Part shown: one piece after another, positions 8,752 to 26,414 of the stretch
How positions within the stretch are numbered: the first letter of the stretch is position 1
Layout of the letters: each line of letters begins with the position of its first letter
Source: an uncultured bacterium
Lineage (GTDB): Bacteria; Zixibacteria; MSB-5A5; CAIYYT01
Length of the DNA stretch: 64,000 bases
Direction: 5' to 3'
NCBI GenBank assembly: GCA_903930455.1
Contig: CAIYYT010000002.1
Coordinates: 6,479-70,478 of the forward strand
Program-made: the position numbers and the translations under genes
The notes under the pieces: model-generated
Seen by the model: the letters and a program-made list of their open reading frames with translations, nothing else
The model's database searches: none
What the model was told of the DNA's origin: nothing

Positions 8752-10728
8752 TCAAAGTTTGACAAGTTGCTGAACTGAGGTGAGCAGAACCCTTGATTGT
8801 TCAAAATCAGTCGTGAGTTGGTTCTGGATCTGGATTAGGCATTCTGGTGTTGTTGCCATGATGATTATTGATTCGAAGTCCTTCTTCAGGTTCTTTTCGA
8901 GGTTCTTTTTCCAGTCTGATTTGCCGGTTTCGATTTCTACTGCTGTTCGTTTGCCGTCTTTTTCGATGACGATGTCTGTGTAGCCGTTCACTGGTTCTTC
9001 GATGAGGACTTTGTATCCCAAAGTTTCATAGTGTTCGGCCACTTTCTGTTTCCAGAATTTGTGTTCGAGTCCTTCGTTGAATCGCACTGGCGGCTTCTGG
9101 TGTCCGGATTGTGATAGCTGTTGCCAGCCGTCTTGGGTGATGTCGAGGAGTACCATTCTTCCGCTTTTTGTCAGTATGCTGACTGGTTCGATCAGTTGTT
9201 TCTCGATTAGGGATTTCTTGATGGTGTCGCCGTTTCTTCTGCTGACTCTCAATCTTCTGTAGCGTTCTACGACTCCCGAGAAAGGATGACTGGCGATCTC
9301 GAGCAGTAGTGCCTGTTCTCGTTCGTTGAGTTTCGCGGTGAAATCCTTTTTCGGAGGGGGCTCGATCTGAGCTGCTTGATTGCGGAGAACGTTTCTATAC
9401 GCCATCATGGCCTTGAGTTTTTGGTCGTCTACTGCTCCCTTGGGTACTTTGCAGTGGGAAATGACGACTTCAAATGGCTGAAGCCATCTTCCTTGTAGCT
9501 TTACGACCGCCGCTCCGATGGGTAAGCGGCCGAGTAGTTCGTTGTCTTCGTCCTTCATCAGCATAGCCGCAGCAACAGCATTGACGTCGAGTCGGTGTTT
9601 CAAGTTCATCGTGATGGTAGTGTAGGAGTTGCCCAATGCGGGTATGGAGATCAAGCTGGGGTGTTGGTCGACGAGGACTATGGCTTCGCCGAGTTCTCTG
9701 ATTTCCCTCAAGATGGTGTCGGTTACTGCTTCTCCTCCTGATCCTCCGGGCTTTTTGAGTAGTATGTGGTGTGCTTCTTCGATGAAGATGACGTGTTTGA
9801 AGCACTCCCTGTCCGGCTGGACTAGGCGATAGTGGTGTATCCAGAGAAGCATGGATTCGATGATCAGGTTCTTGTCATTGTTGGTCAAAGCATCAAGCTC
9901 AAGAATAACGTTTCTGTCAAGTAGGCTTGCCAAGTTTGGCTGGCTGGAAGTGTTGACTACTTCGCCCATGGGGCCAAAGCAGATGGACTTGATTCCTCTC
10001 ATGGTGGAGTCCATCCAGAGCGCCTTTCTGCCCTTGACCGGGTTGTCCTCAAGCCACTTCAAAACGTCTATGAAGGTGGGGTACTTCTGGGGGGTGCCCT
10101 CGTAAACACCAAATTGCTCGTAAACTGCATTCAATGCCTCCTGGAGCAAGAACATGACTCCCTCACCCAAGTAATAGGCGCCGGCGATGATCTCGATCAG
10201 TTTCTTGAGCCAGACTTTGGGATCAGTGCCCGTTGGAGGAATCAAGGGGTTGAAAACCATGGGGGAGGTGTTTCTACCAACAGTGTACACCAATATACTC
10301 TCGTCAGTCATGGCTAAGAGGTCTCGGTAGTTGCGTTTCCAGTCAAAGATCAAGAATGGCTTCTTCCTTGCCAAAAGGCTCTTGAGTAGAATGAAGACCG
10401 TGTTGGTCTTACCAGCACCACTTCTTCCAAAGATGGCTGTGTGCTGTATCCATTCGTCTTCCCGCAAGCCAAACTGGTGGTAGTTTCGTCCTGAGTAGTG
10501 GATTGTTCCGATGGGGTATTCGCCGTGGGCGGTGTCCTTTGGCGGGACTGAGAGATAGGTTTCGGGGCTGTCGACTGTCGAGCCGAGGCGTTTTACTGCC
10601 ATGAGCCGTATTGCTGCTTCGATGTCTCTTCTGCCGTCTTGGTCTTCGGTGAGGTAGGCGAGGTAGTACTGGTCGGCTTTCTTGCCGATGAGTGGTTTCA
10701 ATTGTCTGCAGAGTTCCTGGACGTCCAT
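8752..10728 (-). CDS. HerA/FtsK-superfamily (DUF87-like) ATPase fused to a C-terminal winged-helix and PD-(D/E)xK (Hjc/Mrr-like) nuclease-like domain. An alternative TTG start lies at 10734.
   Basis: Walker A FGRSGAGKTNT. Walker B HVIFIEEAHHIL. HerA-type downstream motif LVDQHPSLISIPALGNSYTTITMNLKHRLD. C-terminal ...NEREQALLLEIASHPFSGVVERYRRLRVSRRNGDTIKKSLIEKQL (wHTH-like) and GYTDIVIEKDGKRTAVEIETGKS (GxxD...E.K nuclease core). Its start lies 2 nt after the upstream gene's TGA. Confidence 0.8.
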   Translation of the reverse strand: MDVQELCRQLKPLIGKKADQYYLAYLTEDQDGRRDIEAAIRLMAVKRLGSTVDSPETYLSVPPKDTAHGEYPIGTIHYSGRNYHQFGLREDEWIQHTAIFGRSGAGKTNTVFILLKSLLARKKPFLIFDWKRNYRDLLAMTDESILVYTVGRNTSPMVFNPLIPPTGTDPKVWLKKLIEIIAGAYYLGEGVMFLLQEALNAVYEQFGVYEGTPQKYPTFIDVLKWLEDNPVKGRKALWMDSTMRGIKSICFGPMGEVVNTSSQPNLASLLDRNVILELDALTNNDKNLIIESMLLWIHHYRLVQPDRECFKHVIFIEEAHHILLKKPGGSGGEAVTDTILREIRELGEAIVLVDQHPSLISIPALGNSYTTITMNLKHRLDVNAVAAAMLMKDEDNELLGRLPIGAAVVKLQGRWLQPFEVVISHCKVPKGAVDDQKLKAMMAYRNVLRNQAAQIEPPPKKDFTAKLNEREQALLLEIASHPFSGVVERYRRLRVSRRNGDTIKKSLIEKQLIEPVSILTKSGRMVLLDITQDGWQQLSQSGHQKPPVRFNEGLEHKFWKQKVAEHYETLGYKVLIEEPVNGYTDIVIEKDGKRTAVEIETGKSDWKKNLEKNLKKDFESIIIMATTPECLIQIQNQLTTDFEQSRVLLTSVQQLVKL

Positions 10729-10730
10729 TT

Positions 10731-11462
10731 TCAATCATTGATCAGTTTTTGTCTGTTCGCTTGGGTGTCGATCTGCTGCTTTAGCTCGAGCAACTGCCCT
10801 TGCAGCCGGCTGACGTCTCGCCAGCAGGCGACTTGTTCAAAGCGCTTTTCTTGTTCGAAGGTGATCAGTTCCTTTTCGAAGAAGGATTTGCGCTTGTCAA
10901 TGACTGGCAGTGCTCCGAGCTCGAAAACGTCGAGTTGATCCAAGACTGAATTGGCACGACTGATTCGTCCGTCAATCTCATAAAGATTGCTGTCACGGAT
11001 GGAGAGGCGCTCGTAGATCTGCTCCAAAATACCCTTGGAGGAGTTCAGCAGTACTTCCTTCTTGGAATCAAGAAACCTATCAATAGGATCATTTGCCTTG
11101 ACGATGGAATCGAGACCAGGATTATCACTGGCCAACTTTGGACTTGCGACTGGCAGGTAGTGTTCATCGACGCCGAGAAGATACGGGTAGCCGAGTAGTC
11201 TTGAACAAGTTGAGAAAATTTGTGGAGCTGTATCTAAAACGAGTTTCTCGTGTCCCATGGGGTTGTAAGGATTGACATAGTTGAAGATCATGGTTACCAC
11301 CTGAAATGTCTTGACTATCCAGTGGTAATCAGCGCAAGTATATAAATGTTCCGATTTCGCAGTCTTTCGAACGATATGGACGAGTTTTTCCATCGCGTGA
11401 ACACCGAACGGTTCAGAGCAGACCGGCCTGAGGTACTCAGCAGCACTAGCAAGCATTGGCAC
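10731..11462 (-). CDS. Hypothetical protein, partner of the HerA-like ATPase (operonic, coupled). The true start may be the internal ATG at 11291 (186 aa), which is preceded by AGGTGG.
   Basis: ORF with a coiled-coil-like C-terminus (...RLQGQLLELKQQIDTQANRQKLIND). The internal ATG at 11291 sits in the motif CAGGTGGTAACCATG (strong SD + ATG). No recognisable family. Confidence 0.6.
   Translation of the reverse strand: MPMLASAAEYLRPVCSEPFGVHAMEKLVHIVRKTAKSEHLYTCADYHWIVKTFQVVTMIFNYVNPYNPMGHEKLVLDTAPQIFSTCSRLLGYPYLLGVDEHYLPVASPKLASDNPGLDSIVKANDPIDRFLDSKKEVLLNSSKGILEQIYERLSIRDSNLYEIDGRISRANSVLDQLDVFELGALPVIDKRKSFFEKELITFEQEKRFEQVACWRDVSRLQGQLLELKQQIDTQANRQKLIND
11278..11370. repeat. About 90-bp repeat, copy 1. 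It overlaps the 5' region of ORF 10731..11462 and contains a TATATA-like box, an AGGTGG SD and the ATG. It is nearly identical to 14608..14700.
   Basis: By-eye alignment: tagttgaagatcatggttaccacctgaa[a/t]tgtcttgactatccagtggtaatcag[c/a]gc[a/g]agtatataaatgtt is shared, with 3-5 mismatches over about 80 bp. Confidence 0.7.
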
Positions 11463-11647: not shown

Positions 11648-14323
11648 CTATCTCAGCAGCAGCATTTTGTTGGTTTCCGATGCGTTTCCGGCCTTCAACC
11701 GGTAGAAATAGATTCCGCTGGCCACCAAACGCCCCCAATCATCTGTTCCATCCCAAGTGGTTGTATATGAGCCCGCATTCTTCGACTCATCGATAAGCAT
11801 TCGGACCTTTCGGCCGAGATTATTGAAAATAGTTATGGAGACGTGAGAGCGGCCTAGAATGCTATATTCAATTATCGTCGCTGGATTGAAAGGGTTCGGG
11901 TAATTCTGAGAAAGCCTCGCAGATTCTGGCAGCGGCTGCAATCCGTCATCTATCACGTCCGTGGCACTTCCTTTGAACCACCGCGCAAGATGGGCTGACA
12001 CTTTCCCCCCAGCTATTGTAAATCTTCCTCCCGCGATCAGATCATTGCCATAGGTTGTGAGAGCAGAAACGAAACCGTTCATCCCTGAACCGAGCGGTGA
12101 CCAAATAGTGTCATCCCATGCAGCAATATAGCTGGCTGTGACTTCTCCTGCTGACCAAAATTTTCCACCTGCAATCAACCTGTTCCTATGGACCGCTAAT
12201 GCGGAGACATATCCACCCATCCCTGAGCTCAAGGAGGACCAAGAGTTTCCGTCCCAAGCAGCTATGTATCTGACCAGGTTGTTTCCTCCTCCTCCCGCTG
12301 TCTCAAACTCTCCTCCAGCAATCAGCTTGTTGTTGAAGACGGTGAGGGCATTGACAGCGAAGTAATACCCACCCGTCCCTGAGCCAAGTGACGTCCAAGA
12401 AACGCCATCCCAAGCTGCGATGCCGGCTCGAGGAACACCCCCAGCAATGTTGAAATATCCTCCGACAATCAGCTCCCTGTCATAGATCGCCAGGGCACGG
12501 ACTTCGCCATTTGTCCCAGAACTGAGCGGAGACCATGAGCTGCCATCCCAGGAAGCAATAAAACTAGAGGCTACGCCCCCCTCCCACGCAAGCAATCCGC
12601 CCGCGATCAACTTGTCGTTGTAGACCGTGAGAGCATAGACGGGGCCATCCATTCCTGAGCCGAGGGTCGACCAAGAGTTGCCGTCCCAGGCGGCAATGTA
12701 ACCGACGCTGACCCCGCCTGCTGAGTGAAAACTCCCCCCCGCTATCAGCTTCTGATTATAGACAGTGAGAGCATTTACGCTTGGTCGACCATAGTTGGCG
12801 CTCATTCCTGGGCCGAGCGATGACCAGTTAGTGCCGTCCCAAGACGCGATGCAATTGACCCTGATACCTCCCGCCATGATGAACTCTCCCCCTACGATAA
12901 GCTTGTCATCATAAATTGTGAGAGCATAGACTGGACCATCCATTGCAGTCCCTAGCGGCGTCCAAGAAGTACCATCCCATCCAGTAATGTTATGGGTAGC
13001 GAAATCTCCTGCATTCTGGAATTGTCCCCCAGCGACCAATTTGCCGTCATAGGACGTGAGGGCCAACACCATGCCTGAAGTTCCCTGGCCCAGTGGTGAC
13101 CAAGATGTACCATCCCAACTGGCGATGTTCTGGGTCGAGATCCCCCCCGCATTATAGAATTTACCTCCGGCGATCAGTTTGTCATCATAGGACGTGAAGG
13201 CAAGCACCATGTCAGTAGTTCCCTGGCCCAGTGGTGACCAAGATGTACCATCCCATCCAGCAATATTATAGGTAGCGACACCTCCCGCTCCCCAGAACAA
13301 CCCTCCAGCGATTAACTTGTCATGATAAACCGTGAGAGTTCGGACAATACCATAATCGCTTATCCCTGTGCCGAGAGTTGACCAAGACGTGCCATTCCAA
13401 GCAGCGATTCTGCTGGCCGGGTCGCCTCCGGCCTCGGAAAAGTTTCCTCCCGCGATAAGACTACCGTTGTAGACTGTAAGAGCCTCGACAACCGAATTCA
13501 TCCCCGACCCAAGCGGCGACCAAGAACTACCATCCCAGGAAGCAATGTGGCGAACCGAATCGCCGTCAACCACGGAGAAGTTTCCTCCCGCGATAAGCCG
13601 CCCGCTATAGACCGTGAGACTTGCGACGACCGAATTCATCCCCGATCCAAGTGGCAACCAGGAGCTGCCGTCCCAAGCTGCGATGTGGTAAGCCTCAATG
13701 CCTCCTGCATTGGTAAAGAACCCTCCGGCTACTAGCCTATTACCATAGACTGCGAGAGCATAGACCTCGCCGTTCATCCCTGTGCCGAGCGTTGACCAGG
13801 AAGTGCCGTTCCAGGCAGCGATTCTGCCGGCAAAAACGGTGCCTGCCAGAGCGAAGCCACCTGCGACGATCAACTGACCATTGTAAACAGCAAAAGCGTA
13901 AACCAGACTATCGACCCCTTGAAATGATGGTGAAATGCTGTTATCCCAATAGATGTCATCAGGGTGATCGGTTGGCGAAGCAGGAGAAGCAGGGCGAAAC
14001 ACTGGCTGACCTGTGGAATTGTCAAATGCGGAGGTGAAACCTCTCAAGTCCAACGGTCCCTGATAACCTGAACGCTGTGCAGCTTCAAGTTCGAATCGTC
14101 CGTCAGGCTTGAGAAACTCCCCGATGCTTCTGCCGGAGGCCTTGTCTGTGTCATCAGTTGCATTCGCCTTGAAGAACCCGCAGCCATCCCATTGCCCCAT
14201 GTTTTTCGTGAATGCCAGTGGCATCTTTTTGAGTGTTTCAGCGGTTATCTGTGATGCTTGCACTTTGTACGCGAACAATAGGCTACAGAGCCCAAGCGCG
14301 GTGAATAGGATCGCTTTTTTCAA
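11648..14323 (-). CDS. Secreted beta-propeller-type repeat protein (14 or more tandem ~50-aa WDG(T/S)SWSxLGxG...YALxVYxxxLIAGGxF repeats) with a T9SS C-terminal sorting domain. TTG start.
   Basis: N-terminal signal MKKAILFTALGLCSLLFA. Long tandem repeat array. C-terminus LSQNYPNPFNPATIIEYSI...GIYFYRLKAGNASETNKMLLLR (T9SS CTD). TTG start with GGGAGG SD; the N-terminus is shared with 14798..17164. Confidence 0.9.
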   Translation of the reverse strand: MKKAILFTALGLCSLLFAYKVQASQITAETLKKMPLAFTKNMGQWDGCGFFKANATDDTDKASGRSIGEFLKPDGRFELEAAQRSGYQGPLDLRGFTSAFDNSTGQPVFRPASPASPTDHPDDIYWDNSISPSFQGVDSLVYAFAVYNGQLIVAGGFALAGTVFAGRIAAWNGTSWSTLGTGMNGEVYALAVYGNRLVAGGFFTNAGGIEAYHIAAWDGSSWLPLGSGMNSVVASLTVYSGRLIAGGNFSVVDGDSVRHIASWDGSSWSPLGSGMNSVVEALTVYNGSLIAGGNFSEAGGDPASRIAAWNGTSWSTLGTGISDYGIVRTLTVYHDKLIAGGLFWGAGGVATYNIAGWDGTSWSPLGQGTTDMVLAFTSYDDKLIAGGKFYNAGGISTQNIASWDGTSWSPLGQGTSGMVLALTSYDGKLVAGGQFQNAGDFATHNITGWDGTSWTPLGTAMDGPVYALTIYDDKLIVGGEFIMAGGIRVNCIASWDGTNWSSLGPGMSANYGRPSVNALTVYNQKLIAGGSFHSAGGVSVGYIAAWDGNSWSTLGSGMDGPVYALTVYNDKLIAGGLLAWEGGVASSFIASWDGSSWSPLSSGTNGEVRALAIYDRELIVGGYFNIAGGVPRAGIAAWDGVSWTSLGSGTGGYYFAVNALTVFNNKLIAGGEFETAGGGGNNLVRYIAAWDGNSWSSLSSGMGGYVSALAVHRNRLIAGGKFWSAGEVTASYIAAWDDTIWSPLGSGMNGFVSALTTYGNDLIAGGRFTIAGGKVSAHLARWFKGSATDVIDDGLQPLPESARLSQNYPNPFNPATIIEYSILGRSHVSITIFNNLGRKVRMLIDESKNAGSYTTTWDGTDDWGRLVASGIYFYRLKAGNASETNKMLLLR

Positions 14324-14352
14324 AATGCCTCCCGGCGAAGTATGATGACTTA

Positions 14353-14388
14353 CTGAACAAGGATAATTAATATGGCTGAATTGTCAAG
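14353..14388 (-). promoter_or_regulatory. Sigma70-like promoter candidate for the 11648..14323 gene: -35 TTGACA (14388..14383), 17-nt spacer, -10 TATCCT (14365..14360). It is conserved upstream of the paralog at 14798..17164.
   Basis: Hexamers read on the minus strand. The about 85-bp upstream/leader region 14324..14420 is about 90% identical to 17165..17260. Confidence 0.45.
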
Positions 14389-14489
14389 GCAAAGCGTCGC
14401 CGATGTACATCCAAGGTCACCTACCGTAGTCGTCGAGGGGCGTTTAGTGATTGTGGGTGTTGGTTGTGGGGTGAGAAGGGGCCGTTTTG

Positions 14490-14700
14490 GGCTCCTTCCC
14501 TGTGCTGTCGGCTATGCTTCAACGTTCAGATATGCCCCTATTGCGGTTACTTCTCATCTGATGAGCGCCCCAGCCAGTGACATCAGGTCGTAAGTGTCGT
14601 TGTCGTAGTTGAAGATCATGGTTACCACCTGAATTGTCTTGACTATCCAGTGGTAATCAGAGCGAGTATATAAATGTTGTGATTCAGCAGTGGTGACACG
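14490..14700 (-). pseudogene. Hybrid gene fragment. The 5' end resembles the N-terminal region of ORF 10731..11462 (...HLYTRSDYHWIVKTIQVVTMIFNY) and the 3' end resembles the C-terminus of ORF 17342..18721 (DNDTYDLMSLAGALIR*EVTAIGAYLNVEA). An in-frame stop interrupts it.
   Basis: Minus-strand translation of 14490..14700 compared with ...HLYTCADYHWIVKTFQVVTMIFNYVNPYNP (gene at 10731..11462) and ...NNDIYDLTSLARAIIKGEITQAGAYLNVEA* (gene at 17342..18721). Confidence 0.5.
14608..14700. repeat. About 90-bp repeat, copy 2 (see 11278..11370). It abuts the decayed C-terminal fragment of a paralog of 17342..18721.
   Basis: By-eye alignment with 11278..11370. Confidence 0.7.
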
Positions 14701-14797
14701 CCACTGGGTGTGCCGTACAGCTTCGATGACTTGTCAAAAAGAAAAACCGGAAGCCGCCCTCTAAACTCCCGGTCATCAGTTCACTCAGCGTCCTTGC

Positions 14798-17164
14798 TTA
14801 CTTGCACCCCGCACACGGTGCCAGTCCGCCAGAGAATATGTACGCAATCAGATACACCGCGTCCGAAATATCAACCGACCCACTGCAATTGGCGTCTCCG
14901 GATTGATATGGGCAAGGCTCTGGGCCACCCCCAAAGATATAAGCAATCAGATATACAGCGTCTGAGATATCAACGCTCCGACTGCCGTCAGCGTCACCGC
15001 AGAGCTGTGGTTCGCTGAAGGCACCAAACTTGGTCACGCATGCGAGATACGGACCGTTGCCTGCCGACTGGTATGGATTGAGAAGCGGAAAGTCCGCCGA
15101 CCAAGTCATTCCTGTTACATAGGCGTTGCCCCCATTGTCAATTGCGATGTGTGGACAGTAAGCTCCTTCCCCGTCCATGCCACTGCCGCCGAGGTAGGTG
15201 CTGTATTCAAGCGATCTTCCGCATGGTTTCAGTTTGGTCACGAAAAAGTCCCAGTCACCATGATTCATTGACTGGTATGGATTCTGAATCGGAAAGAGAG
15301 ATGACTTTGTTGCTCCCGCCACGTAGGCATTTCCGACATTGTCTACAGCAATCCCAAATCCTTTGTCATAATCTCCTCCACCAAGGTAGGTGCTATATAA
15401 CAGACTGCTGCCAGAACTTGAGAGTTTGCATACAAAAGCATCGCAATAGCCACCTGCAAACGTCCCCTGATAGGGATTCTGAGTCGGGAAGTTGGAAGAC
15501 CATGTTTCCCCAGTCACATAGGCATTTCCGGTGCCATCGACTGCGATGGCGTGTCCTGCATCCGCCTCTCCTCCACCGAGGTAGGTGCTGTATATAAGAC
15601 TGTTCCCGGCACTGCTCAGCTTGGTTACGAAGGCATCGAATGGGCCACCCTGCAATGTTGCTTGCAACGGATTCTGAGTCGGAAAGTCTGTTGATACAGT
15701 CCGCCCCGTAACATAGGCATTATCGTTGGCATCGATCGCAACTCCATAGCCCTCGTCTTCTCCTAATCCGCCGAGATATGTACTGTAAGCCAGTGTGCTA
15801 CCGGTCGGATTCAGTTTCGTGATGAAGGCGTCGACTAAGCCACCACGAAATGTGGATTGGTAGGAATTTTGGGTGGGGAAATCTCCCGCATAGGTAAGGC
15901 CCGTTACAAAGGCGTTGCCGTTGCCATCGACAGCGATCCCATAGCTTTCGTCATAATCACGGCCGCCTAGGTAAGTGCTGTAGACGAGTGCATTACCGTC
16001 CGCATTTAGCTTGGTAACGAAAGCATCATAATAGTGATGATTCAAGGTTGACTGGAACGGATTCTGCGTCGGAAAGTCCATCGAACCAGTACCACCCGTA
16101 ACGTAGGCGTTGCCACCGTTGTCAACTGCGATGCCCCAAGCGAATTCAAAGTCTTCACCACCGAGGTAGGTGCTATATATCAGACTGTTCCCAGTGGTTG
16201 AGAGCTTTGTTACAAAGACGTCCTGGTTGCCATGGTACGTCTGATAGGGATTCTGAGTCGGGAAATCGATCGACTGGGTCCAGCCCGTTACATAAGCATT
16301 ACCGGAGTTGTCTACTGCAATGCTAAAGGCTTCGTCATAGCCGCTCCCACCTAGCAAGGTGCTATAGATAAGCCCAACATTCAGCGATGTTGATTGCATT
16401 CGGCTCTGATCCGTAGTTTCCAAGGTAACCGTATCCTCTGCTTCTCGCGAAAACAGGGCAGAACCTGAACGCTTATCGTTTGTCGGCCCTGCAAAAGCGA
16501 CTATCACGTCTCCCCACTTGGTTTGCACTAAAAGTGTGCCGCCGGAATCGACCAAAGTCTTTTCGGCGCCTTCGAAGGCTATTTTGACTTGTGCCACATC
16601 TGCTCCCGGCTCCACGATATACGCATACGACGCCTGGCCTGTGCCGTCGCCAGAATATCTTATGTCGATACCGGGATAAATGTCTTTGAGCGTGATCGCT
16701 TCGTAGTTGGGCACATCGGTATGCCATTTCGACGGATCATTACCGATGAAGTAGTTGCACTTGTATTCCAATTGCCCCTCGGCTACAACTTCGGGATTCG
16801 AATTCGCCCCGACGAATTTGGCAGTTAGAATCATCTGCTCGACGGAGTCCCTTTCCTGCGAGAATCGATCAGCCGTGTCAAAGGGGCTAGCGGCGTTCGC
16901 CAGACCAGGCACACTAACTGCACCGCCGCGGTCGATCCGTCTTGTGAATTGGTAGGTCACCCCTTCTTTTGTAAACCACATCGTGGCGCCTCCGGCGCTA
17001 GCGCGGAACAAGACGCGTTCGTCCCACTGGCCCATGTTTTTCGTAAAGGCCAAAGGCATCTTTGCGAGTGTCTTAGTGGTAATTTGTGATGCTTGCACTT
17101 GGAACACGAACAATAAGCTACAAAGTCCTAGCGCGAGCGCAGTGAGTAGGATTGCTTTCCTCAA
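14798..17164 (-). CDS. Secreted SBBP (beta-propeller) repeat protein with two C-terminal dockerin-type repeats. It is a paralog of 11648..14323 at its N-terminus only. TTG start.
   Basis: Signal peptide MRKAILLTALALGLCSLLF. Repeated GxGNAYVTGxTxSxDFPTQNPYQ... units (SBBP-like). C-terminus CGDADGSRSVDISDAVYLIAYIFGGG...GDANCSGSVDISDAVYLIAYIFSGG is a duplicated dockerin-type Ca-binding motif. Confidence 0.9.
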   Translation of the reverse strand: MRKAILLTALALGLCSLLFVFQVQASQITTKTLAKMPLAFTKNMGQWDERVLFRASAGGATMWFTKEGVTYQFTRRIDRGGAVSVPGLANAASPFDTADRFSQERDSVEQMILTAKFVGANSNPEVVAEGQLEYKCNYFIGNDPSKWHTDVPNYEAITLKDIYPGIDIRYSGDGTGQASYAYIVEPGADVAQVKIAFEGAEKTLVDSGGTLLVQTKWGDVIVAFAGPTNDKRSGSALFSREAEDTVTLETTDQSRMQSTSLNVGLIYSTLLGGSGYDEAFSIAVDNSGNAYVTGWTQSIDFPTQNPYQTYHGNQDVFVTKLSTTGNSLIYSTYLGGEDFEFAWGIAVDNGGNAYVTGGTGSMDFPTQNPFQSTLNHHYYDAFVTKLNADGNALVYSTYLGGRDYDESYGIAVDGNGNAFVTGLTYAGDFPTQNSYQSTFRGGLVDAFITKLNPTGSTLAYSTYLGGLGEDEGYGVAIDANDNAYVTGRTVSTDFPTQNPLQATLQGGPFDAFVTKLSSAGNSLIYSTYLGGGEADAGHAIAVDGTGNAYVTGETWSSNFPTQNPYQGTFAGGYCDAFVCKLSSSGSSLLYSTYLGGGDYDKGFGIAVDNVGNAYVAGATKSSLFPIQNPYQSMNHGDWDFFVTKLKPCGRSLEYSTYLGGSGMDGEGAYCPHIAIDNGGNAYVTGMTWSADFPLLNPYQSAGNGPYLACVTKFGAFSEPQLCGDADGSRSVDISDAVYLIAYIFGGGPEPCPYQSGDANCSGSVDISDAVYLIAYIFSGGLAPCAGCK

Positions 17165-17193
17165 GGTGCCTCCCGGCGAAGTATGATGATTTG

Positions 17194-17228
17194 CTGAATA
17201 AGGATAATCAATATGGCTGAATTGTCAA
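17194..17228 (-). promoter_or_regulatory. Promoter candidate paralogous to 14353..14388: -35 TTGACA (17228..17223), 16-nt spacer, -10 TATCCT (17206..17201).
   Basis: Same hexamers in the conserved leader region. Confidence 0.4.
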
Positions 17229-17341
17229 GGCAAAGCGTCGCCACCGTGCCCTCCCTCATGGATCGCTTGCCGTGCTTTCCTAGAGGTGTTTGCTGTGGCG
17301 GGGAGAAGGGGCCCAAAATGGCCCCTTCTTTGTGCTGTGGG

Positions 17342-18721
17342 TTATGCTTCGACATTCAGATATGCCCCTGCTTGTGTGATTTCTCCTTTGATGATGGCTC
17401 TTGCGAGTGAGGTTAGGTCGTAAATGTCGTTGTTGTGGCTGGCTTCGAGTATTGTGTTTCCTCGTAGGTGTTTGGTGGTGTACATGGCGAGGATGAGCTC
17501 TTTTAGGTCGCAGTCGTTGATCACGTTGAATGGGTGTGATTCGCTTAGGCCTGCTGTGGTGTTTATGTAGTGGTTGTGGTTGAAGTAGTCGTCCAGTTCT
17601 GGTTCTTTTTCTCGGTAGACTTTGGCTGCCAGCTTGGCAAGCTTTTCCAACAATTCCTCTTTTCTGCCGGTCATGGCGACTTCGTGGTTTTTGAGCATCT
17701 CTTTGATCATCTCTCCCGAGGCGTTTACTCGTATGAATCCGCCTATGGCGTAGGTGTGTACTCGGTGTTCGGTGAAGGCGGCGTTGGCAGTGCTTGCCTC
17801 TTTTGGGGCGAGGTAGTTGAGGTTGGGGAAGCCGATTTGGAAGTTGCCTTTCTCGATCATCCTTTCGGCTGTTTCGATGTTGACGGTGAAGCAGTATCTG
17901 CCTTTGTCGTGTCGCCAGCGTTCGGCTATTTGTCTTGCTTGTTCTCTGATGGCGTGGCGGGGAACCAGAGATGGTAGCATTCGGATGGTTTCGCCTTTTC
18001 GTGTGCAGGTGTAGATAATGCTCTCCGAGTAGGCGATGTTGCGGTAGCCGTCTGAGCGCATCTGGAAGTGGCTAATTGATTCAGTCAGTTTGAGTTTTCC
18101 TTGGTCGTCGGCGATCTGCCCGAGTACGCTCGCCTGCCTGAAGTTTGTAATCGGCAAGGCCTGACTGATCAGGACGCTTTCTTCATCTTGGAAGTCTTCC
18201 AGGGTGAGTATCTGGCTGAGGTCGTAGCTGTTGATGTCGTTGTAGCCAGAAAGCTTGATCTGCTTGCTCTTGCCCTTCAGGAAGTCCCTGAGCGAGTTGA
18301 AGTCACTGTAAATCCTCGAAAGGAGACTGTAAACTGTTTGGTGAGTCCAGTTGGCTACGAGAGTCCTCTTGGCAATAGCGACCAGCTGCAAGTAGCCGAG
18401 GCCGTCGACGAAATACAAATGGTCGCGGATGTCGGCCAGCATCCTCTCAAACATGGTTCCTTCCCGATAATAAGTTCGTTCAGTTGAGTAATTGATGTCG
18501 TGGCTGTAGCCCAGCTCTTTGAGCTCCGTAATCAATTGATCTGGCGCGTTTAGTCTTTGCAGGGTGGTTTCGATGATGTGGCTTGAGTGGTCGCTGCAGC
18601 CCCAGGGGTGGATGCCTCTTAGCAGGACGTCGGCAAGTGAAACTTCCACGATCTTGAAGGTTAGGCGTTTGAATTCGGGGACTTGCTCGTCTGGTATTAG
18701 TGACAGCTGGATAGTTTGCAT
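17342..18721 (-). CDS. Hypothetical 459-aa protein with a SAP-like motif near its C-terminus. It is the third gene of the vWA-MoxR cluster and overlaps the MoxR gene by 25 nt.
   Basis: ATG start. The segment IKEMLKNHEVAMTGRKEELLEKLAKLAAKV resembles a SAP DNA-binding motif. No other recognisable domain. A decayed paralogous C-terminal fragment lies at about 14490..14607. Confidence 0.7.
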   Translation of the reverse strand: MQTIQLSLIPDEQVPEFKRLTFKIVEVSLADVLLRGIHPWGCSDHSSHIIETTLQRLNAPDQLITELKELGYSHDINYSTERTYYREGTMFERMLADIRDHLYFVDGLGYLQLVAIAKRTLVANWTHQTVYSLLSRIYSDFNSLRDFLKGKSKQIKLSGYNDINSYDLSQILTLEDFQDEESVLISQALPITNFRQASVLGQIADDQGKLKLTESISHFQMRSDGYRNIAYSESIIYTCTRKGETIRMLPSLVPRHAIREQARQIAERWRHDKGRYCFTVNIETAERMIEKGNFQIGFPNLNYLAPKEASTANAAFTEHRVHTYAIGGFIRVNASGEMIKEMLKNHEVAMTGRKEELLEKLAKLAAKVYREKEPELDDYFNHNHYINTTAGLSESHPFNVINDCDLKELILAMYTTKHLRGNTILEASHNNDIYDLTSLARAIIKGEITQAGAYLNVEA

Positions 18722-20211
18722 ACAACTTCACCTCCATTGGCGGTTGATTGGTGATGGTTGGAGATTAGTAATTCGAAGGTCTCGAGGTCCTTCTCGATTG
18801 CTTCTCGGGTCTGCTCGATGTCATTGGGATCAAGGTTTTGCTTTCTGGCGAGCTTGGCAACATGGCTGTAGGCAACGATCTTGGCCAAGTCAGACTGCTG
18901 ATCCAGCAACCCCTCTACCTCCTCGACAAATTCGATGCATTCCCCTTGAAGGTTCGGGATACACTTGCTGGATAGCTTCTCGCCGGAGACCTTGCGGCTC
19001 AAACCCTCCAAAAGCTCCCTGGGAACTGTGCCGGGACGGCGTGCCTCTACTTGCAAAGCCGTATAGGCCAGCAGAGTGATGTCTTGCTCGCCATTGATTA
19101 AGTCATTCCAGGCCTTGGAAGCCGCAAACTCTCCCAGGTTTGATGTGAGTAGGATTTCGGCTTTGCGCATCATGTCTTTGGTCGTGAAGAGCTCGTAGAT
19201 GGTGTTGACCTTTTCCATATTCGAACCCTCAGCGAAAAAGCTACTCAACAGGTCGAAGCAGATCTCCATCTTGTGAACTGCCTCTTCTTTCTTGAGTGAT
19301 TCATCGTTCAAACCGACTGGAATGCTGGATTGGACAACGTAGCGAGCTGACTTGACAAAGTCTGGTATCGTTGTGCTGAGCACTTCGGACTTGGCCAATT
19401 CGATGGCCCGATTGGAGAGGATGTTTCGGTAGATAAAGCCCAGCCTTCTACCATCAAGTGAGATGTCGCCTTTGGATTCCCTCATCAGGAGATCGGCAAA
19501 GCGCGCCAAGAACAAGGAAAGCGTTGAGTACTGCTCTCTTAGGGTGTTGAAGTGTCTTGCTGCGGTGTGGAACATCTGGGTCATCTTCTGACCGATTTCC
19601 TTCACTTCCTGCTTGTCAACTGTGCCACTGGTTTGTCCGTTGTTCCAGACTGAGATGGCAGGAGCATCATCGCCGTTGATGTGTCCGGTGACTTTGATGC
19701 GGTCTGCTTCCTCCATCTGCAAGACATCCGGAGGATAAACAAACAAGGCAAATCGGCCGATCAGTGCTTCGTCGAGTGCCTGGGTGGCTGAGTAGTTCAT
19801 GGGGTTCATGGCTGCCCACACCCATTTGACCTTGGTCTCAAATCCCATGATCTTTCGAGAACGGATAATTTCGAGCCATTTGCTCTGAAGTTCGGGGACG
19901 GCGCGATTGAGTTCGTCTATCAGGACTAGTTCCTTGTCCCAGATGGTGACGTTGCTCGGGACATATTCTACGACTCCCTGTTTCAATTTTTCGATGTTGG
20001 GGAAGCCAAGTATGTCCTCGAACATGCATTTGCTTGCGTCGTAGACGAGTGACTTGCGGTTGAGTGCTTGGCCGATTTTGTTGGCCACGTGGGTCTTTGC
20101 GCAACCATGATTGCCAATCAGTAGTAGCGGGTCGCCTGTCAAGAGCGATGACAGGATTAGGTTTTCGTCTTCGTCTTTCCAGCCGTAGATGCCGAGTGTT
20201 TCGAGTATCAT
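18697..20211 (-). CDS. MoxR-like AAA+ ATPase (AAA_5 family) with a C-terminal extension.
   Basis: Walker A LIGNHGCAKTHV. Walker B with NRA: LVLIDELNRA. Sensor/Arg finger AMNPMNYSATQALDEALIGRF. ATG start with AGGAGA SD. Confidence 0.85.
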   Translation of the reverse strand: MILETLGIYGWKDEDENLILSSLLTGDPLLLIGNHGCAKTHVANKIGQALNRKSLVYDASKCMFEDILGFPNIEKLKQGVVEYVPSNVTIWDKELVLIDELNRAVPELQSKWLEIIRSRKIMGFETKVKWVWAAMNPMNYSATQALDEALIGRFALFVYPPDVLQMEEADRIKVTGHINGDDAPAISVWNNGQTSGTVDKQEVKEIGQKMTQMFHTAARHFNTLREQYSTLSLFLARFADLLMRESKGDISLDGRRLGFIYRNILSNRAIELAKSEVLSTTIPDFVKSARYVVQSSIPVGLNDESLKKEEAVHKMEICFDLLSSFFAEGSNMEKVNTIYELFTTKDMMRKAEILLTSNLGEFAASKAWNDLINGEQDITLLAYTALQVEARRPGTVPRELLEGLSRKVSGEKLSSKCIPNLQGECIEFVEEVEGLLDQQSDLAKIVAYSHVAKLARKQNLDPNDIEQTREAIEKDLETFELLISNHHQSTANGGEVVCKLSSCH

Positions 20212-20456
20212 TGTTTTTTCTCCTATCTTCTTTGCCCCTTTGAGGGCAATGAAAAAGGGGAGATCCTCGCTGATGAGGGTTCTCCCCGTGGTTTAAGTTT
20301 GTTGATGATTGTTAGCTGTTGTTGAATTGAGATGAGTGGAGCTATGGTTTGTGGATGATGTCCCCTTTTCCGTTGCGATGTCGCGCCCCAGTCATGGAGG
20401 AACAGCTGTTAGTGGGGCGGACAGTGATTTGTGGTTTCTTCCTGGTTTTCTCCTTT

Positions 20457-21752
20457 CTATTCGCAGACGTCTGAGAGGTTGACGATGTCGCCGAATTTGG
20501 CAAAGTCCTCGCAGGTGGTTGTGCCGTCGAAGAGGATCGTCAAGGTAACGAGCCCCAAGGCTTTAAGTTGTTTTGACAATTCTTCTGACATGTCGGCGTA
20601 ACCATCGGTAATGATGATTGCCTTTTCGAATCGTCTTTCGAGTATTGATTGGGCTATGCAGTTGAAGTCGGTGCCGTAACTTGTCCTGATTTTGCCTTTG
20701 ATCAGATCTTGCATGGTGGTTTCGACTACTATGTTCGAAAACAGGAACAGCGAGGTGACACTGTTTTTCAGCTTGGATAGGACTCCGATGATATTTGGCA
20801 GGTAATCGTTTACGCTTCCAGAGACGTCAAGGTAGATCGCCAGACCCTTTTCTTCAGAGGTTGGTTTGGATGTGTGGTTGTGGAAGTACCCCGGATAAAA
20901 CCCCGAAGCCAACAGTACCAAGTCGCGTTTGGATGGATACAATGGAATGGGTGAAACTCCCACCCGCTGAACCCGAAAGTACTCCTTGAATCGGTCAAGT
21001 TTGCGCTTGGTCAGAAACTTTTGTAGCAGTACTTTCTTTATTGATAGGTGTGTCTTCAACGCCTCCATAAACAGATCAAGCAGTTCAAGGCTGAATCCGG
21101 CGTTTCTTCCTCCTTTGCCGGCGACGCTGCGCTTCAGGTCTTCGGCGATTTTGGAGAGCAGTTCGTTTGGAAAAGAGGTCTCGTGACTCGATGGGTTTCC
21201 GTCGTGGGAGTGGCTGCCGATCAAGACAACAGTTGATAGTCGTTCGCTTTGGGTCAGGATCTTCAAAGTCTGGATCAACTCTCCAGTCGTGAAATGATCG
21301 TGTTCGTCGTTTTGACTGTATAGCCTTTCGTAGACCTTGCTGTACTTGCCTCGCGACATTTCACTCAAGGGCCGCAGTAGCCCAGGCAGTCCTCGATCCG
21401 GATAAAACTTGCGGAACAGACTGCCGTTGCGGGAATAGTCGGTGTATACTTCGCTGATGACAGCATTGATGATTGCATCAGCAGCAATGTTCTCCAGCTC
21501 ACCATTCTCATAGATGAAGTGGCAGAACATTGGATGCAGCAGCTCGTGAAAGACCAGGCTGAACAAGTCTTCTTTACATGTGATATGCTTGTTGATGAAC
21601 CCTGGATTGTACGACAGTTTGCCGTCAACGGTGATCGCCGCCGTCGGAATCCTGTCATCTTCAACGGTTTCGTTAACGAAGCCGGCGACGAAGCTGTCAA
21701 AGCCGAGAGCATCTTTGAGTACTTCTCTCACGGTTTCGAGATTGATTTTCAT
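20457..21752 (-). CDS. DUF2201-type protein: N-terminal putative metallopeptidase-like domain (HExxH) plus a C-terminal vWA domain. This is the vWA partner of the MoxR ATPase.
   Basis: PTAAITVDGKLSYNPGFI...LVFHELLHPMFCHF...NIAADAIINAVI fits the DUF2201_N pattern (AATDGxxLYYNP...HExLH...WNxAxDxAIN). C-terminal IYLDVSGSV is a MIDAS DxSxS motif, followed by ...AIIITDGYAD. ATG start with AGGAGGT SD. Confidence 0.85.
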   Translation of the reverse strand: MKINLETVREVLKDALGFDSFVAGFVNETVEDDRIPTAAITVDGKLSYNPGFINKHITCKEDLFSLVFHELLHPMFCHFIYENGELENIAADAIINAVISEVYTDYSRNGSLFRKFYPDRGLPGLLRPLSEMSRGKYSKVYERLYSQNDEHDHFTTGELIQTLKILTQSERLSTVVLIGSHSHDGNPSSHETSFPNELLSKIAEDLKRSVAGKGGRNAGFSLELLDLFMEALKTHLSIKKVLLQKFLTKRKLDRFKEYFRVQRVGVSPIPLYPSKRDLVLLASGFYPGYFHNHTSKPTSEEKGLAIYLDVSGSVNDYLPNIIGVLSKLKNSVTSLFLFSNIVVETTMQDLIKGKIRTSYGTDFNCIAQSILERRFEKAIIITDGYADMSEELSKQLKALGLVTLTILFDGTTTCEDFAKFGDIVNLSDVCE

Positions 21753-22765: not shown

Positions 22766-23009
22766 GGTTCACCAATCACACGGAGACCGGCTTGCTGCAA
22801 AGGACGGTAGGCGACCCCGAAGGGGGAAAGCTTTACTAAATAGTTCGCGATGAGCGAATCTATTAGATAAAGCTTTAGCCGCCGTCCGAGCAGCAAGCAA
22901 CGCCGATTGAACTTCACTGTCCCACCCTCGTCATCTCCTGTCATACCTGTATACCTACTATATTCGAGTTTCGTTACAAATGCCAAGTCGTTGGCCGTTA
23001 GGGAATTCG

Positions 23010-23085
23010 GAGTAACAAAATTGTAACATAATGGTAATCCCAAAAGGCAATTATGTTACCTTTTTCGGCCAATTATGTTACTGCT
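23010..23085. repeat. Iteron-like cluster. The motif GTAACA(A/T)AAT and its complement ATTATGTTAC occur 4-5 times as direct and inverted copies immediately downstream of the replication-relaxation gene.
   Basis: gtaacaaaat-tgtaacataat (23013..23032). aattatgttac at 23049..23059 and 23071..23081. Confidence 0.55.
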
Positions 23086-24004
23086 TTTCAGAAGCTATAT
23101 TATCGGGTTCGGGCTCTTTGTTGAGGGGTAATTGATATTCGAAGGACTGGAAAACTCCGAGAATGGAATACAATCCAGACTTGGTGTCACCCCCCTTTGT
23201 CCAGATCCGAGCTGAGATACCGGACTTAAATAGGGAGTTATGGTCGGCAAGCCAGATGAAGTCGGTTGCGGGAACGGATCTGACCAGTCGGCAGAGCTGG
23301 AGGGAGCGAGCCTCAGTATTTGCCACGAACAGCGTCCGGAATCCCCTAAAAAGTGCCGGCAGTATCTCTTCAAACTGTTTGTAGGATCCGGATCGGAACA
23401 CCTGTTGATAACTGAGAATCTTTTTCCGGATGTCTGTGGTCTTGGTGTCGGAGCTTGACAAAGTCTCGGTGCCCATGTCGACTTCGAGAAAAAAGAGCAA
23501 CGACTTGCCCTGCTTCGTATCGGTTATCGAAAAGATGCCGTCGGGGATGATGCTTGTCGCGATCCGGGAGTCCGGCAAACTGATTTCGCAGCGACCACGA
23601 TCGATCGAGGAAGATAGGAAATCGACTTTCAGGTACGAACGTTGCCTGACCAGCTGAGCCAGGTGAATCCAAACCCAATTGACGAGCAGCTGATGGCCGA
23701 GACTTCTGAAATCGAGATTCGTGATCTGATCGCCGGCTGTGCCGGCATCAATTTCCCCGGAACCTTTCAAAACCTTCAGGCCCAGGGAAGTGAGGCAAAC
23801 CAGGGATTCCGGTCTGCCTGCAGAACTGTCGCTTGGCCGCTCGGCCATCGTAAGGAGCCCGACTGCTCTAAGTTCGCGAACTTTCTTGCGTGCCATCTGC
23901 TGGCTGGGAAAGATCAGCAGGGTCAATTGGGACGTCGTCAGAATGCGATACTCCGCCACAGTCTTGAGTATCTCGATGTCTCTCGGTGTTAGGTCTGCTC
24001 TCAC
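23078..24004 (-). CDS. Replication-relaxation (Replic_Relax) family protein, a plasmid/ICE-associated HTH protein. GTG start.
   Basis: N-terminus MRADLTPRDIEILKTVAEYRILTTSQLTLLIFPS...VRELRAVGLL is the characteristic wHTH of the Replic_Relax family. Size about 308 aa. Confidence 0.75.
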   Translation of the reverse strand: MRADLTPRDIEILKTVAEYRILTTSQLTLLIFPSQQMARKKVRELRAVGLLTMAERPSDSSAGRPESLVCLTSLGLKVLKGSGEIDAGTAGDQITNLDFRSLGHQLLVNWVWIHLAQLVRQRSYLKVDFLSSSIDRGRCEISLPDSRIATSIIPDGIFSITDTKQGKSLLFFLEVDMGTETLSSSDTKTTDIRKKILSYQQVFRSGSYKQFEEILPALFRGFRTLFVANTEARSLQLCRLVRSVPATDFIWLADHNSLFKSGISARIWTKGGDTKSGLYSILGVFQSFEYQLPLNKEPEPDNIASEKQ

Positions 24005-25670: not shown

Positions 25671-26414
25671 TCATGCCTTGACTGAAACACTTGTGTAGAG
25701 AAATTCACTCAAGCCGATGGCACCGATTATCTTGTATTTCAGATCAGGTGATTGGATGTATTTCCGCCGGCAATCCCGATAACCTTCTGAAGTGTAATAC
25801 TTAGTGATATACCCGTGGTGAAAAAGGAATTCCGCGATTCTCTTGAGAGTGAACCTGTGGGGGTGTCCTCTGTCAATACGTGTTATTGCCAATATTCCAT
25901 GCAAGAAGGAACCCCAAGCAGGGTGAACATTAACGGTTAGATATAGGATGCCGTCCGCCTTGAGTACTCGGTAAATCTCCGCTACGAGTCTGTCGGCATT
26001 TCGAACGTGGTCTATGACGTTTTCGATAATGACTAGGTCCATGGAGCTGTCCTCAAACCGCAGTCCTTCTTGCTCGATATCTCATATCTTATATTTGGAC
26101 TCCGGTACTCCACAAGTTCCGGCTGAGTAGAATAGAAATCGCAGAGCGGGTCGATCGCAAATCGTTCGGACGCATCCCGTGAATGCTATGGCTCCTACCG
26201 GCCAGCTTCCCACTTCAAGAACGCGTACCTGAGAGAAGGATCTCCGTTCGCCTAGAAACGCTTTGTTTAGCATTTCCATAAGGTATTCTGAACGCCATTT
26301 GTGATAGGTTAATGGCGGGCGCGCCCCATCTCGTATTCTCTGTGCGGTGGCTTTCCAAAAAAGCCGTTCAATGATTTGCGCTTTCTTCCAACGATCAAGT
26401 GAAATCACGAGCAT
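25671..26414 (-). pseudogene. Class I SAM-dependent methyltransferase interrupted by a single in-frame TGA (minus-strand codon 26084..26082). The N-terminal part carries motif I and the C-terminal part the methyltransferase type-11 region.
   Basis: ORF 26082..26414 ends ...VLEVGSWPVGAIAF...ESKYKI*. The same frame continues DIEQEGLRFEDSSMDLVIIENVIDHV...LKADGILYL (ORF 25671..26042). Confidence 0.55.

Follow-up and report, generated by a model that had tools for sequence, protein, structure and literature searches.

MoxR-class (AAA_5) ATPase rings work together with adaptor proteins that carry a vWA domain with a metal ion-dependent adhesion site (MIDAS), and such pairs grip and remodel specific client proteins, as in RavA-ViaA, CbbQ-CbbO, NorQ-NorD, Rea1 and the p618-p892 pair of the virus ATV. 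The ATV pair has been implicated in tail development (PMC4124505). A MoxR protein paired with a metallopeptidase-vWA protein was noted in jumbo phages by Iyer et al., and a role in virion assembly was proposed (PMC7824862). In N4-like phages gp24 and gp25 are two of the 14 core genes, belonging to the middle transcripts and with no function assigned (PMC4193335). Ternary vWA-MoxR conflict systems having a third component were described by Kaur, Burroughs, Iyer and Aravind in 2020 (PMC7159879). Here we analyze a 64,000-nucleotide stretch of DNA (the window) from an uncultured bacterium of the Zixibacteria, in which a cluster of three genes encodes a zincin-vWA protein of 431 amino acids (vWA431), a MoxR-class AAA+ ATPase of 504 amino acids and a SAP protein of 459 amino acids (p459). 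We find that this trio is the conserved backbone of an undescribed family of integrated mobile elements that have a Replic_Relax initiator, a HerA/FtsK-type translocase and often tyrosine integrases.

The three open reading frames noticed in the initial annotation are all present on the minus strand, where they lie head to tail in the order vWA431 (21752..20457), MoxR (20211..18697) and p459 (18721..17342). The 3' end of the MoxR gene overlaps the 5' end of the p459 gene by 25 nt (18697-18721), and the start codon of p459 is secure because 49 homologues align from residue 1. Across the loci we have compared the two genes overlap by as much as 35 nt or stand as far as 38 nt apart, and the coupling of p459 to MoxR, which we read as translational, is solid. 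The vWA431 gene is separated from MoxR by a spacer of 245 nt, so that the description of the gene ends as overlapping or closely spaced is right for MoxR and p459 and wrong for vWA431 and MoxR.

Within this spacer folding and conservation reveal two hairpins (20232..20287, minus strand). The first is terminator-like, with a stem at 20287-20257 followed by a U-tract at 20256-20252, and the second directly precedes the ribosome-binding site of MoxR. The minimum free energy of the fold is -33.1 kcal/mol (z = -5.57), a value equalled by none of 200 shuffled sequences. The hairpin stretch is kept in the two closest relatives, from Ignavibacteria (L010 and L011 in our numbering of loci), while the remaining upstream part of the spacer has diverged. 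We infer that the hairpin acts as a terminator or attenuator. The distance between the vWA and MoxR genes varies from 4 nt to 5.4 kb across loci, and in some of them other genes are inserted. A single three-gene transcript is doubtful because of the conserved terminator-like hairpin and this variable spacing, and the vWA431 gene in particular need not belong to the single operon that had been expected.

The vWA431 protein begins with a zincin-like metallopeptidase domain, which has the sequence HELLH at residues 69-73, and its C-terminal part is a vWA domain whose MIDAS is complete (D309-x-S311-x-S313, T361 and D383). Across 40 homologues H69, E70, H73, D309, S311, S313, T361 and D383 vary little or not at all. 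Conservation of both the HExxH motif and the complete MIDAS therefore indicates a zincin-vWA fusion in which both sites are intact. On its own the protein scores below the Pfam thresholds for DUF2201_N (17.4 bits against 23.2) and VWA_CoxE (17.8 against 26.4), and it gives no match to DUF2201 (PF09967) in the Pfam search. At the level of the family there are matches to DUF2201_N in 22 of the 40 homologues (best 8.4e-8), to DUF2201 in 15 and to VWA_CoxE in 30, and a precomputed table lists PF13203 or PF09967 for a few of the cluster representatives. The match to phrog_1314 (E = 2.5e-24) is essentially full length, covering residues 32-397. Judged by sequence, vWA431 is probably a divergent branch of the DUF2201 architecture, in which a zincin-like N-terminal domain (PF13203) is joined to a vWA-like domain (PF09967), and its initial description as a DUF2201-type vWA/metallopeptidase-like protein agrees with the conserved motifs and with these family-level matches.

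Assignment of the second protein as a MoxR AAA+ ATPase is well founded. It passes the Pfam gathering scores for AAA_5 (40.7 bits, cut-off 22) and AAA_3 (40.1 bits, cut-off 27), its best sequence match in the PDB is the MoxR-family structure 2r44, and it matches phrog_1297 with E = 8.5e-12. The AAA+ core spans approximately residues 17-160, with intact Walker A (GNHGCAKT, K39 and T40) and Walker B (LIDELNR, D99, E100 and R103) motifs. Beyond the core the protein continues in a C-terminal extension of some 300 amino acids, conserved and particular to this family, that reaches approximately residue 450. In 24 orthologues the Walker residues K39/T40, D99/E100 and R103 and the sensor and arginine residues N136, R153 and R255/R256 are invariant, and across residues 250-450 the conservation of 0.6-0.83 is on a par with that of the ATPase core.

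SAP (helix-extended-helix, HeH) domains bind double-stranded DNA. We find no family match for p459 itself in Pfam, NCBIfam or PHROGs, but 38 of its 49 homologues match the Pfam SAP domain (PF02037) at E <= 1 (best 5e-5), and two divergent members, P0295 (30.2 bits) and P0335 (28.7 bits), exceed the SAP gathering score of 23.9 at the homologous position. In p459 the motif occupies residues from about 336 to 370 (17612..17716, minus strand; …MLKNHEVAMTGRKEELLEKLAKLAAKVY…), with a two-helix fold and a conserved G-x-K…L pattern. The p459 family carries a genuine SAP domain, predicted from its sequence to bind DNA, and it was correct to describe the protein as having a SAP-like motif and no other identifiable domain. 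The family comprises 86 full-length clusters in a word-indexed search, and 257 representatives in an exhaustive search of 1.84 billion proteins. An AlphaFold2 model of p459 is confident, with a predicted local distance difference test score (pLDDT) of 89.8 and a predicted template modelling score (pTM) of 0.68, and outside the SAP domain it has no sequence or structural relative in the PDB or BFVD. Apart from SAP the fold is novel. We also considered a tyrosine-recombinase-like motif seen by eye in the C-terminal part of the protein (KHLRGN…H…Y); it was rejected, as the downstream histidine and tyrosine are not conserved and there is no structural match.

The three genes are strictly conserved together. 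MoxR lies directly upstream of p459 in 26 of the 26 loci with enough flanking sequence, with the vWA gene upstream of MoxR. We repeated the test in the reverse direction, starting from the vWA gene, by a metagenome scan that gave 27 loci with at least 5.5 kb downstream of that gene. MoxR follows on the same strand in 25 of these, and p459 comes straight after MoxR in all 23 informative loci, two loci ending before the position of p459. The other two (L120 and L121) hold decayed fragments of the trio module. Among 29 clustered loci the vWA gene is upstream of MoxR on the same strand in 23. Thus the suggestion that a MoxR-vWA pair has a dedicated third component is borne out in both directions of search and across phyla, and p459 does not belong to a housekeeping family.

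The trio is found in hosts of at least nine phyla, among them Ignavibacteria, Zixibacteria, Thermodesulfobacteriota, Hydrogenedentota, Nitrospiraceae, Verrucomicrobiota, Lentisphaerae/Victivallales, Sumerlaeota and Auribacterota. The closest relatives are in Ignavibacteria, at 76-79% identity. Across host groups the identity is highest for MoxR (53-75%), lower for the vWA protein (43-68%) and lowest for p459 (30-52%).

To define the surroundings of the trio we clustered all open reading frames within 10 kb on either side in about 30 non-redundant loci. The recurrent families are p459 itself (29 loci), MoxR (28), the vWA protein (23), a HerA/FtsK-type ATPase of about 660 amino acids (14), a small partner of the HerA protein (12), tyrosine integrases (8), GP88 (7) and Replic_Relax (5), and the clustering yields no others. 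Further neighbours include ArdC-N, single-stranded DNA-binding protein (SSB), DUF932, ThiF/E2, a DnaG-type primase and CobS/CobT-like pairs, typical of conjugative and integrative elements.

The same survey bears on the idea that the trio might be a chaperone for metal-cofactor insertion or enzyme activation, of the CoxD/E, NorQ/D, CbbQ/O or CobS/T kind, acting on a metabolic enzyme. The MoxR class of the ATPase and the weak VWA_CoxE similarity of vWA431 are in keeping with this, as are the CbbQ/CobT-like pairs that in L007 and L030 adjoin the trio. The clustered neighbourhoods contain no conserved gene for a metabolic client, however, the context is that of a mobile element, and systems of these types have neither an HExxH protease domain nor a SAP partner. 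We regard such a function as highly improbable.

In the window a Replic_Relax protein, of the kind that initiates replication by nicking and is relaxase-like, is encoded at 23078..24004 on the minus strand (PF13814, E = 3.3e-22; phrog_9381, E = 7e-13). On the other side of the trio a small protein of approximately 186 amino acids and a 658-amino acid HerA/FtsK-type DNA-translocating ATPase are encoded together at 8752..11291, also on the minus strand. The start codon of the small gene is probably the ATG at 11291, judging by a repeated ribosome-binding site and ATG. The ATPase has matches to DUF87, TrwB, TraG, CedD, HerA and VirB4. In the C-terminal 60 or so residues of the ATPase (8752-10728, minus strand) we see, by eye only, a PD-(D/E)xK nuclease-like motif (GYTDIVIEKDGKRTAVEIETGKS); taken at face value this would make the protein a translocase-nuclease fusion. 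In the relative with the least cargo (L011) the backbone from Replic_Relax to HerA is only about 10 kb.

Comparison of closely related elements reveals exchange between them. A second metagenome contig (L009) matches positions 22904 to 10457 of the window at 99.86% identity, a stretch that takes in the trio, the cargo and the start of the HerA gene, where the fetched locus ends. Its Replic_Relax is only 47% identical to that of the window, and it has an unrelated flank with DsrE, DUF134 and cysteine metabolism genes. Therefore the elements are mosaic and occur in differing genomic settings, and this indicates module swapping between related elements. Looking up the HerA gene in other contigs returned the same arrangement again, and no new flanks. 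In the window we found no tRNA genes and no Rfam families, and a search for flanking direct repeats around 7-27 kb gave no convincing att-like pair. The match of a 123-amino acid open reading frame at 25671-26042 is limited to the C-terminal end of a methyltransferase domain, so that this may be what is left of a gene truncated at a former insertion site.

Adjacent to this backbone is a variable cargo, placed directly after p459 and often on the opposite strand. By locus it comprises HEPN-ApeA (L004), nSTAND1 (L002), a type I-C CRISPR-Cas system (L007), RNase T (L001), a formylglutamate amidohydrolase (FGase; L011), and secreted beta-propeller proteins in the window and L010. Cargo after p459 or between the vWA and MoxR genes in L001, L002, L004, L006 and L007 also includes an AbiU2-like HEPN protein, an SMC/AAA_21 protein, and a pair of an S8 peptidase with an AAA protein. 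In two distant genomes a second pair, of an AAA_5 (CbbQ/CobS-like) protein and a CobT-like vWA protein, adjoins the trio (L007 5447-8466 and L030 11470-14510), and therefore some elements carry two different MoxR-type/vWA pairs.

The initial annotation proposed that the trio may be a variant NTP-dependent conflict or defence system. The trio would then be a MoxR-vWA defence system carried by the element, in which MoxR and the vWA protein sense or license and the SAP protein, directed to DNA, acts as effector or sensor against invading DNA. Defence genes are frequent on mobile elements, and HEPN-ApeA, nSTAND, Cas I-C, AbiU2-like and BREX-like genes lie beside the trio in several loci. There is also the precedent of conflict systems with a third component (PMC7159879), and a weak match of the MoxR protein to bpMoxR (PF20030). 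At 25.9 bits that match falls short of the cut-off of 27, and it is confined to the generic AAA core. We searched PADLOC-DB v2 with all three proteins; vWA431 and MoxR have no match, and p459 has only a chance-level match to Cas12d (E = 0.008 at 12 bits), so a known defence system is rejected. Searches of p459 against Pfam, NCBIfam, PHROGs and PADLOC find no VMAP, beta-propeller, FtsH-type or effector domain (caspase, trypsin, TIR and others), nor is there a structural match. No nuclease effector domain is found, and the vWA protein has a zincin domain in place of effector arrays. The trio is invariant, whereas the defence genes next to it vary and often lie on the opposite strand. Thus the trio is the constant part of the element and the defence genes are the variable part. 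At 53-75% identity across phyla MoxR is also unlike the conflict proteins, which typically diversify fast, and the phage versions described below sit among replication genes. On this evidence we consider a defence function for the trio itself to be unlikely.

Close members of the trio family are absent from IMG/VR, cultured phages and PLSDB plasmids. Using the window proteins in tblastn, we find no match for p459 in plasmids, none for vWA431 in phages and plasmids, and only a generic AAA-core match for MoxR in cultured phages and plasmids. Divergent versions do occur in viral contigs. A phage-like contig (L037) has two DUF2201 genes (2162-3727 and 5102-6448) upstream of one MoxR gene, together with a SAP protein, and its 521-amino acid zincin-vWA paralogue matches PF13203 and, weakly, PF09967. 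All three genes are present in a 103-kb IMG/VR contig (L040), where the third matches the p459 family profile with E = 2e-13; the matches of the third gene in two further contigs (L042 and L043) are marginal. In five large viral contigs the module lies among genes for DNA ligase, RecA, helicases, uracil-DNA glycosylase (UDG), a family A DNA polymerase (PolA) and reverse transcriptase. Through the L037 paralogue we reach cultured phages that encode a relative of the zincin-vWA protein, namely PA5oct-like jumbo phages and N4-like ones (Pollock gp24/gp25). In the N4-like phages gp24 is the ATPase and gp25 the vWFA/metallopeptidase.

These relatives raise the possibility of an assembly chaperone for a virion or a DNA-transfer apparatus, with the zincin maturing structural proteins. 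There are published precedents (PMC4124505, PMC7824862), the pair matches phrog_1314 and phrog_1297, and the co-occurring HerA/FtsK-type ATPase could be a packaging or transfer motor. Yet among the families that recur within 10 kb of the trio in the surveyed loci there is none of capsid, portal, tail or pilus proteins, and the L011 backbone spans only about 10 kb. The third component is a predicted DNA-binding SAP protein, the neighbours in viral contigs are replication and recombination genes and not structural ones, and the close family is absent from IMG/VR. We therefore think an assembly role quite improbable. The predicted DNA-binding partner and the phage replication and recombination neighbourhoods point to a role on DNA, and not in virion assembly or defence.

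Our preferred interpretation, in which we place middling confidence, is that the trio is a DNA-tethered, ATP-driven machine for remodelling or processing proteins that serves the DNA transactions of the element itself. The observations on which it is based are the anatomy of the genes, the intact catalytic motifs, the SAP domain, the strict co-conservation, and the setting in mobile elements and among replication genes. In such a machine a MoxR hexamer would supply an ATP-driven pulling force. The vWA domain of the 431-amino acid protein would grip the target by the metal site of its MIDAS, as in other MoxR/vWA and Rea1-type machines, and the fused zincin domain would cleave the gripped target. 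The p459 protein could dock the machine onto the double-stranded DNA of the element, or might itself be the DNA-bound client, and the conserved C-terminal extension of MoxR is a plausible docking site for it. The module would then remodel or proteolytically process proteins on the DNA of the element during replication, transfer or establishment in a new host.

A number of points weigh against this interpretation. The p459 protein of the window itself stays below the Pfam threshold for SAP, and beyond that domain the protein has no recognizable catalytic or interaction domain. Published proposals for phage MoxR/vWA pairs are of virion or tail assembly and not of DNA transactions (PMC7824862, PMC4124505). 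There is no integrase gene in the window between 8.7 and 24.1 kb, that is from HerA to Replic_Relax, so that the mobility of this element is deduced from its relatives, which have one to three tyrosine integrases nearby. Defence genes cluster beside the trio, and a role in conflict keeps some probability for that reason. Finally, the physical complex of the three proteins, its tethering to DNA and the identity of its substrate are elements that we infer.

Two analogies help to frame what such a machine might do. Eukaryotic SPRTN and Wss1, acting with p97/Cdc48, combine DNA binding, a zincin protease and an AAA+ unfoldase to act on proteins attached to DNA. The trio could be a prokaryotic mobile-element analogue of these, its SAP protein recruiting the MoxR unfoldase and the vWA-zincin protease to DNA and so removing covalently or tightly bound proteins. 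The targets would be, for example, the nicking initiator or relaxase of the element once replication or transfer is over, or proteins of the host that stand in the way of the incoming DNA. This analogy is a speculative one to which we assign a low probability; if correct, it would provide a function for the long-orphan core genes of the N4 gp24/gp25 type in many phages.

The second analogy is with ArdC, an antirestriction protein of conjugative plasmids that comprises a DNA-binding domain and a zincin metalloprotease. By this comparison the trio might be a module for counter-defence and establishment, in which a SAP-tethered zincin degrades host restriction, nucleoid or defence proteins that MoxR unfolds. 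The combination of DNA binding and metalloprotease parallels that of ArdC, a gene encoding ArdC-N alone lies directly upstream of the vWA gene in L007, neighbours such as SSB, DUF932 and ThiF/E2 are those expected in a leading or establishment region, and in the window the trio adjoins the Replic_Relax initiator. Against this, ArdC-N is adjacent in that one locus only, there is no homology to known anti-defence proteins, and the blocks of replication genes in phages fit a role in genome replication at least as well. We think an ArdC-like function rather unlikely.

A decayed second copy of the C-terminus of p459 had been noticed close to the trio. It is real, lying at 14610..14515 on the minus strand, where 32 codons with an in-frame TGA are 62% identical to residues 428-459 of p459 (E = 7e-7). 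It had been taken to imply that the module was duplicated and rearranged, and the structure of the surrounding repeat leads to a different conclusion. Copy A of a direct repeat of approximately 430 bp (17006..17441, minus strand) contains the last 30 or so codons of p459, a hairpin (17329-17303), a promoter-like site (17228-17201, TTGACA…) and the first 55 or so codons of a secreted protein of 788 amino acids. Copy B, with the duplication junction (14171..14691, minus strand; D12, D14), contains the decayed 3' end of p459, the hairpin, the promoter and the first 55 codons of a secreted protein of 891 amino acids. Two aligned stretches of approximately 500 nt that contain the repeat have a mean column identity of 83%, and the repeat families D9-D11 have 75-88%. 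The two secreted proteins have in common only their first 55 residues, corresponding to the signal peptide, which are 72% identical.

Immediately 5' of the decayed fragment, 92 nt (14691-14600) are 90% identical to 11363-11272, positions that hold the ribosome-binding site, the ATG and the first five codons of the small gene that precedes HerA. This copied start is joined in frame to the decayed 3' end of p459, and is followed by the copied hairpin, promoter and signal peptide; a tandem duplication of a cargo cassette would leave the parts in this order. The decayed copy is the scar at the junction of two tandem copies of a segment that runs from the 3' end of p459 through the cargo to the 5' end of the small gene. 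Duplication of the trio module is accordingly rejected; what was duplicated is the cargo cassette. The single-cargo state is found in L010, and in L011 the slot between p459 and the small gene is occupied by one different gene, that for the FGase.

Isolated remnants of the 3' end of p459, of about 37-51 codons, occur in two other loci that have neither MoxR nor vWA genes. One is beside BREX-like genes (L032 1735-1887) and the other is beside the gene for an 822-amino acid AAA-type ATPase (L036 10001-10111). They suggest that the conserved 3' end of p459 is a recurrent recombination breakpoint for the exchange of cargo.

The two cargo genes of the window (11648-17164) both encode beta-propeller surface proteins with internal repeats. 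In one of them these are SBBP repeats with a period of 195 nt, accompanied by a weak dockerin-type match just below threshold, and the other has Rax2-like repeats with a period of 138 nt and a sorting tail of the type IX secretion system (T9SS). Their surroundings look like an exopolysaccharide or cell-surface region, with a PEP-CTERM/GEVED protein and a 1904-amino acid T9SS adhesin downstream. The element family is a vehicle for both defence and surface-protein cargo, with two hot spots flanking the trio, and should be useful in mining for new cargo and defence genes.

How does the trio compare with the systems described previously? In the literature we find no paper that mentions MoxR together with a SAP domain, and DUF2201 appears only incidentally. 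The classical pairs RavA-ViaA, CbbQ-CbbO, NorQ-NorD, CoxD-CoxE, ATV p618-p892 and Rea1/Midasin share with the trio an AAA_5-class ring and a MIDAS vWA adaptor. In the trio, by contrast, the adaptor is fused to a protease domain, there is a SAP partner, and the context is a mobile element instead of a metabolic operon. With the ternary conflict systems (PMC7159879) it has in common the three-component logic, in which a MoxR ATPase and a vWA protein are joined by a third protein particular to the family. It differs from them in its sub-threshold bpMoxR match, in having no VMAP, beta-propeller or FtsH third component and no effector arrays, and in the fusion of its vWA domain to a zincin, which is rare in those systems; moreover the trio is backbone and not the variable content of an island. 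The likeness to ArdC and to SPRTN/Wss1 would be one of functional analogy, in the combination of DNA binding with a zincin, and in the trio the components are split over three proteins.

The closest counterparts are the pairs of N4 (gp24/gp25) and of PA5oct (group 2.2 jumbo phages). Here too an AAA_5/MoxR gene is adjacent to one for an HExxH zincin with a C-terminal vWA domain, the genes fall into the same PHROG families (phrog_1314 and phrog_1297), and in both cases mobile genomes carry them. The window pair is nevertheless too divergent from those of cultured phages to be detected by tblastn, its gene order is vWA then MoxR, and its MoxR extension is about 300 amino acids. It has an obligatory, translationally coupled SAP protein, and its carrier is no tailed phage but a small integrated element that has Replic_Relax and a HerA-type translocase. 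N4-like and many jumbo phages have pairs of MoxR and metallopeptidase-vWA proteins among their core genes, and the related pair here, in an element present in at least nine mostly uncultivated phyla, has an obligatory third partner. The role on DNA to which this partner and the phage neighbourhoods point gives a concrete and testable hypothesis for the whole MoxR/metallopeptidase-vWA class. We conclude that the pair falls within a class already known from phages and mobile elements, that of MoxR + metallopeptidase-vWA pairs, and that what is new is the obligatory SAP third protein of otherwise novel fold, the conserved MoxR extension, the undescribed carrier element and the steady association with genes of DNA metabolism.

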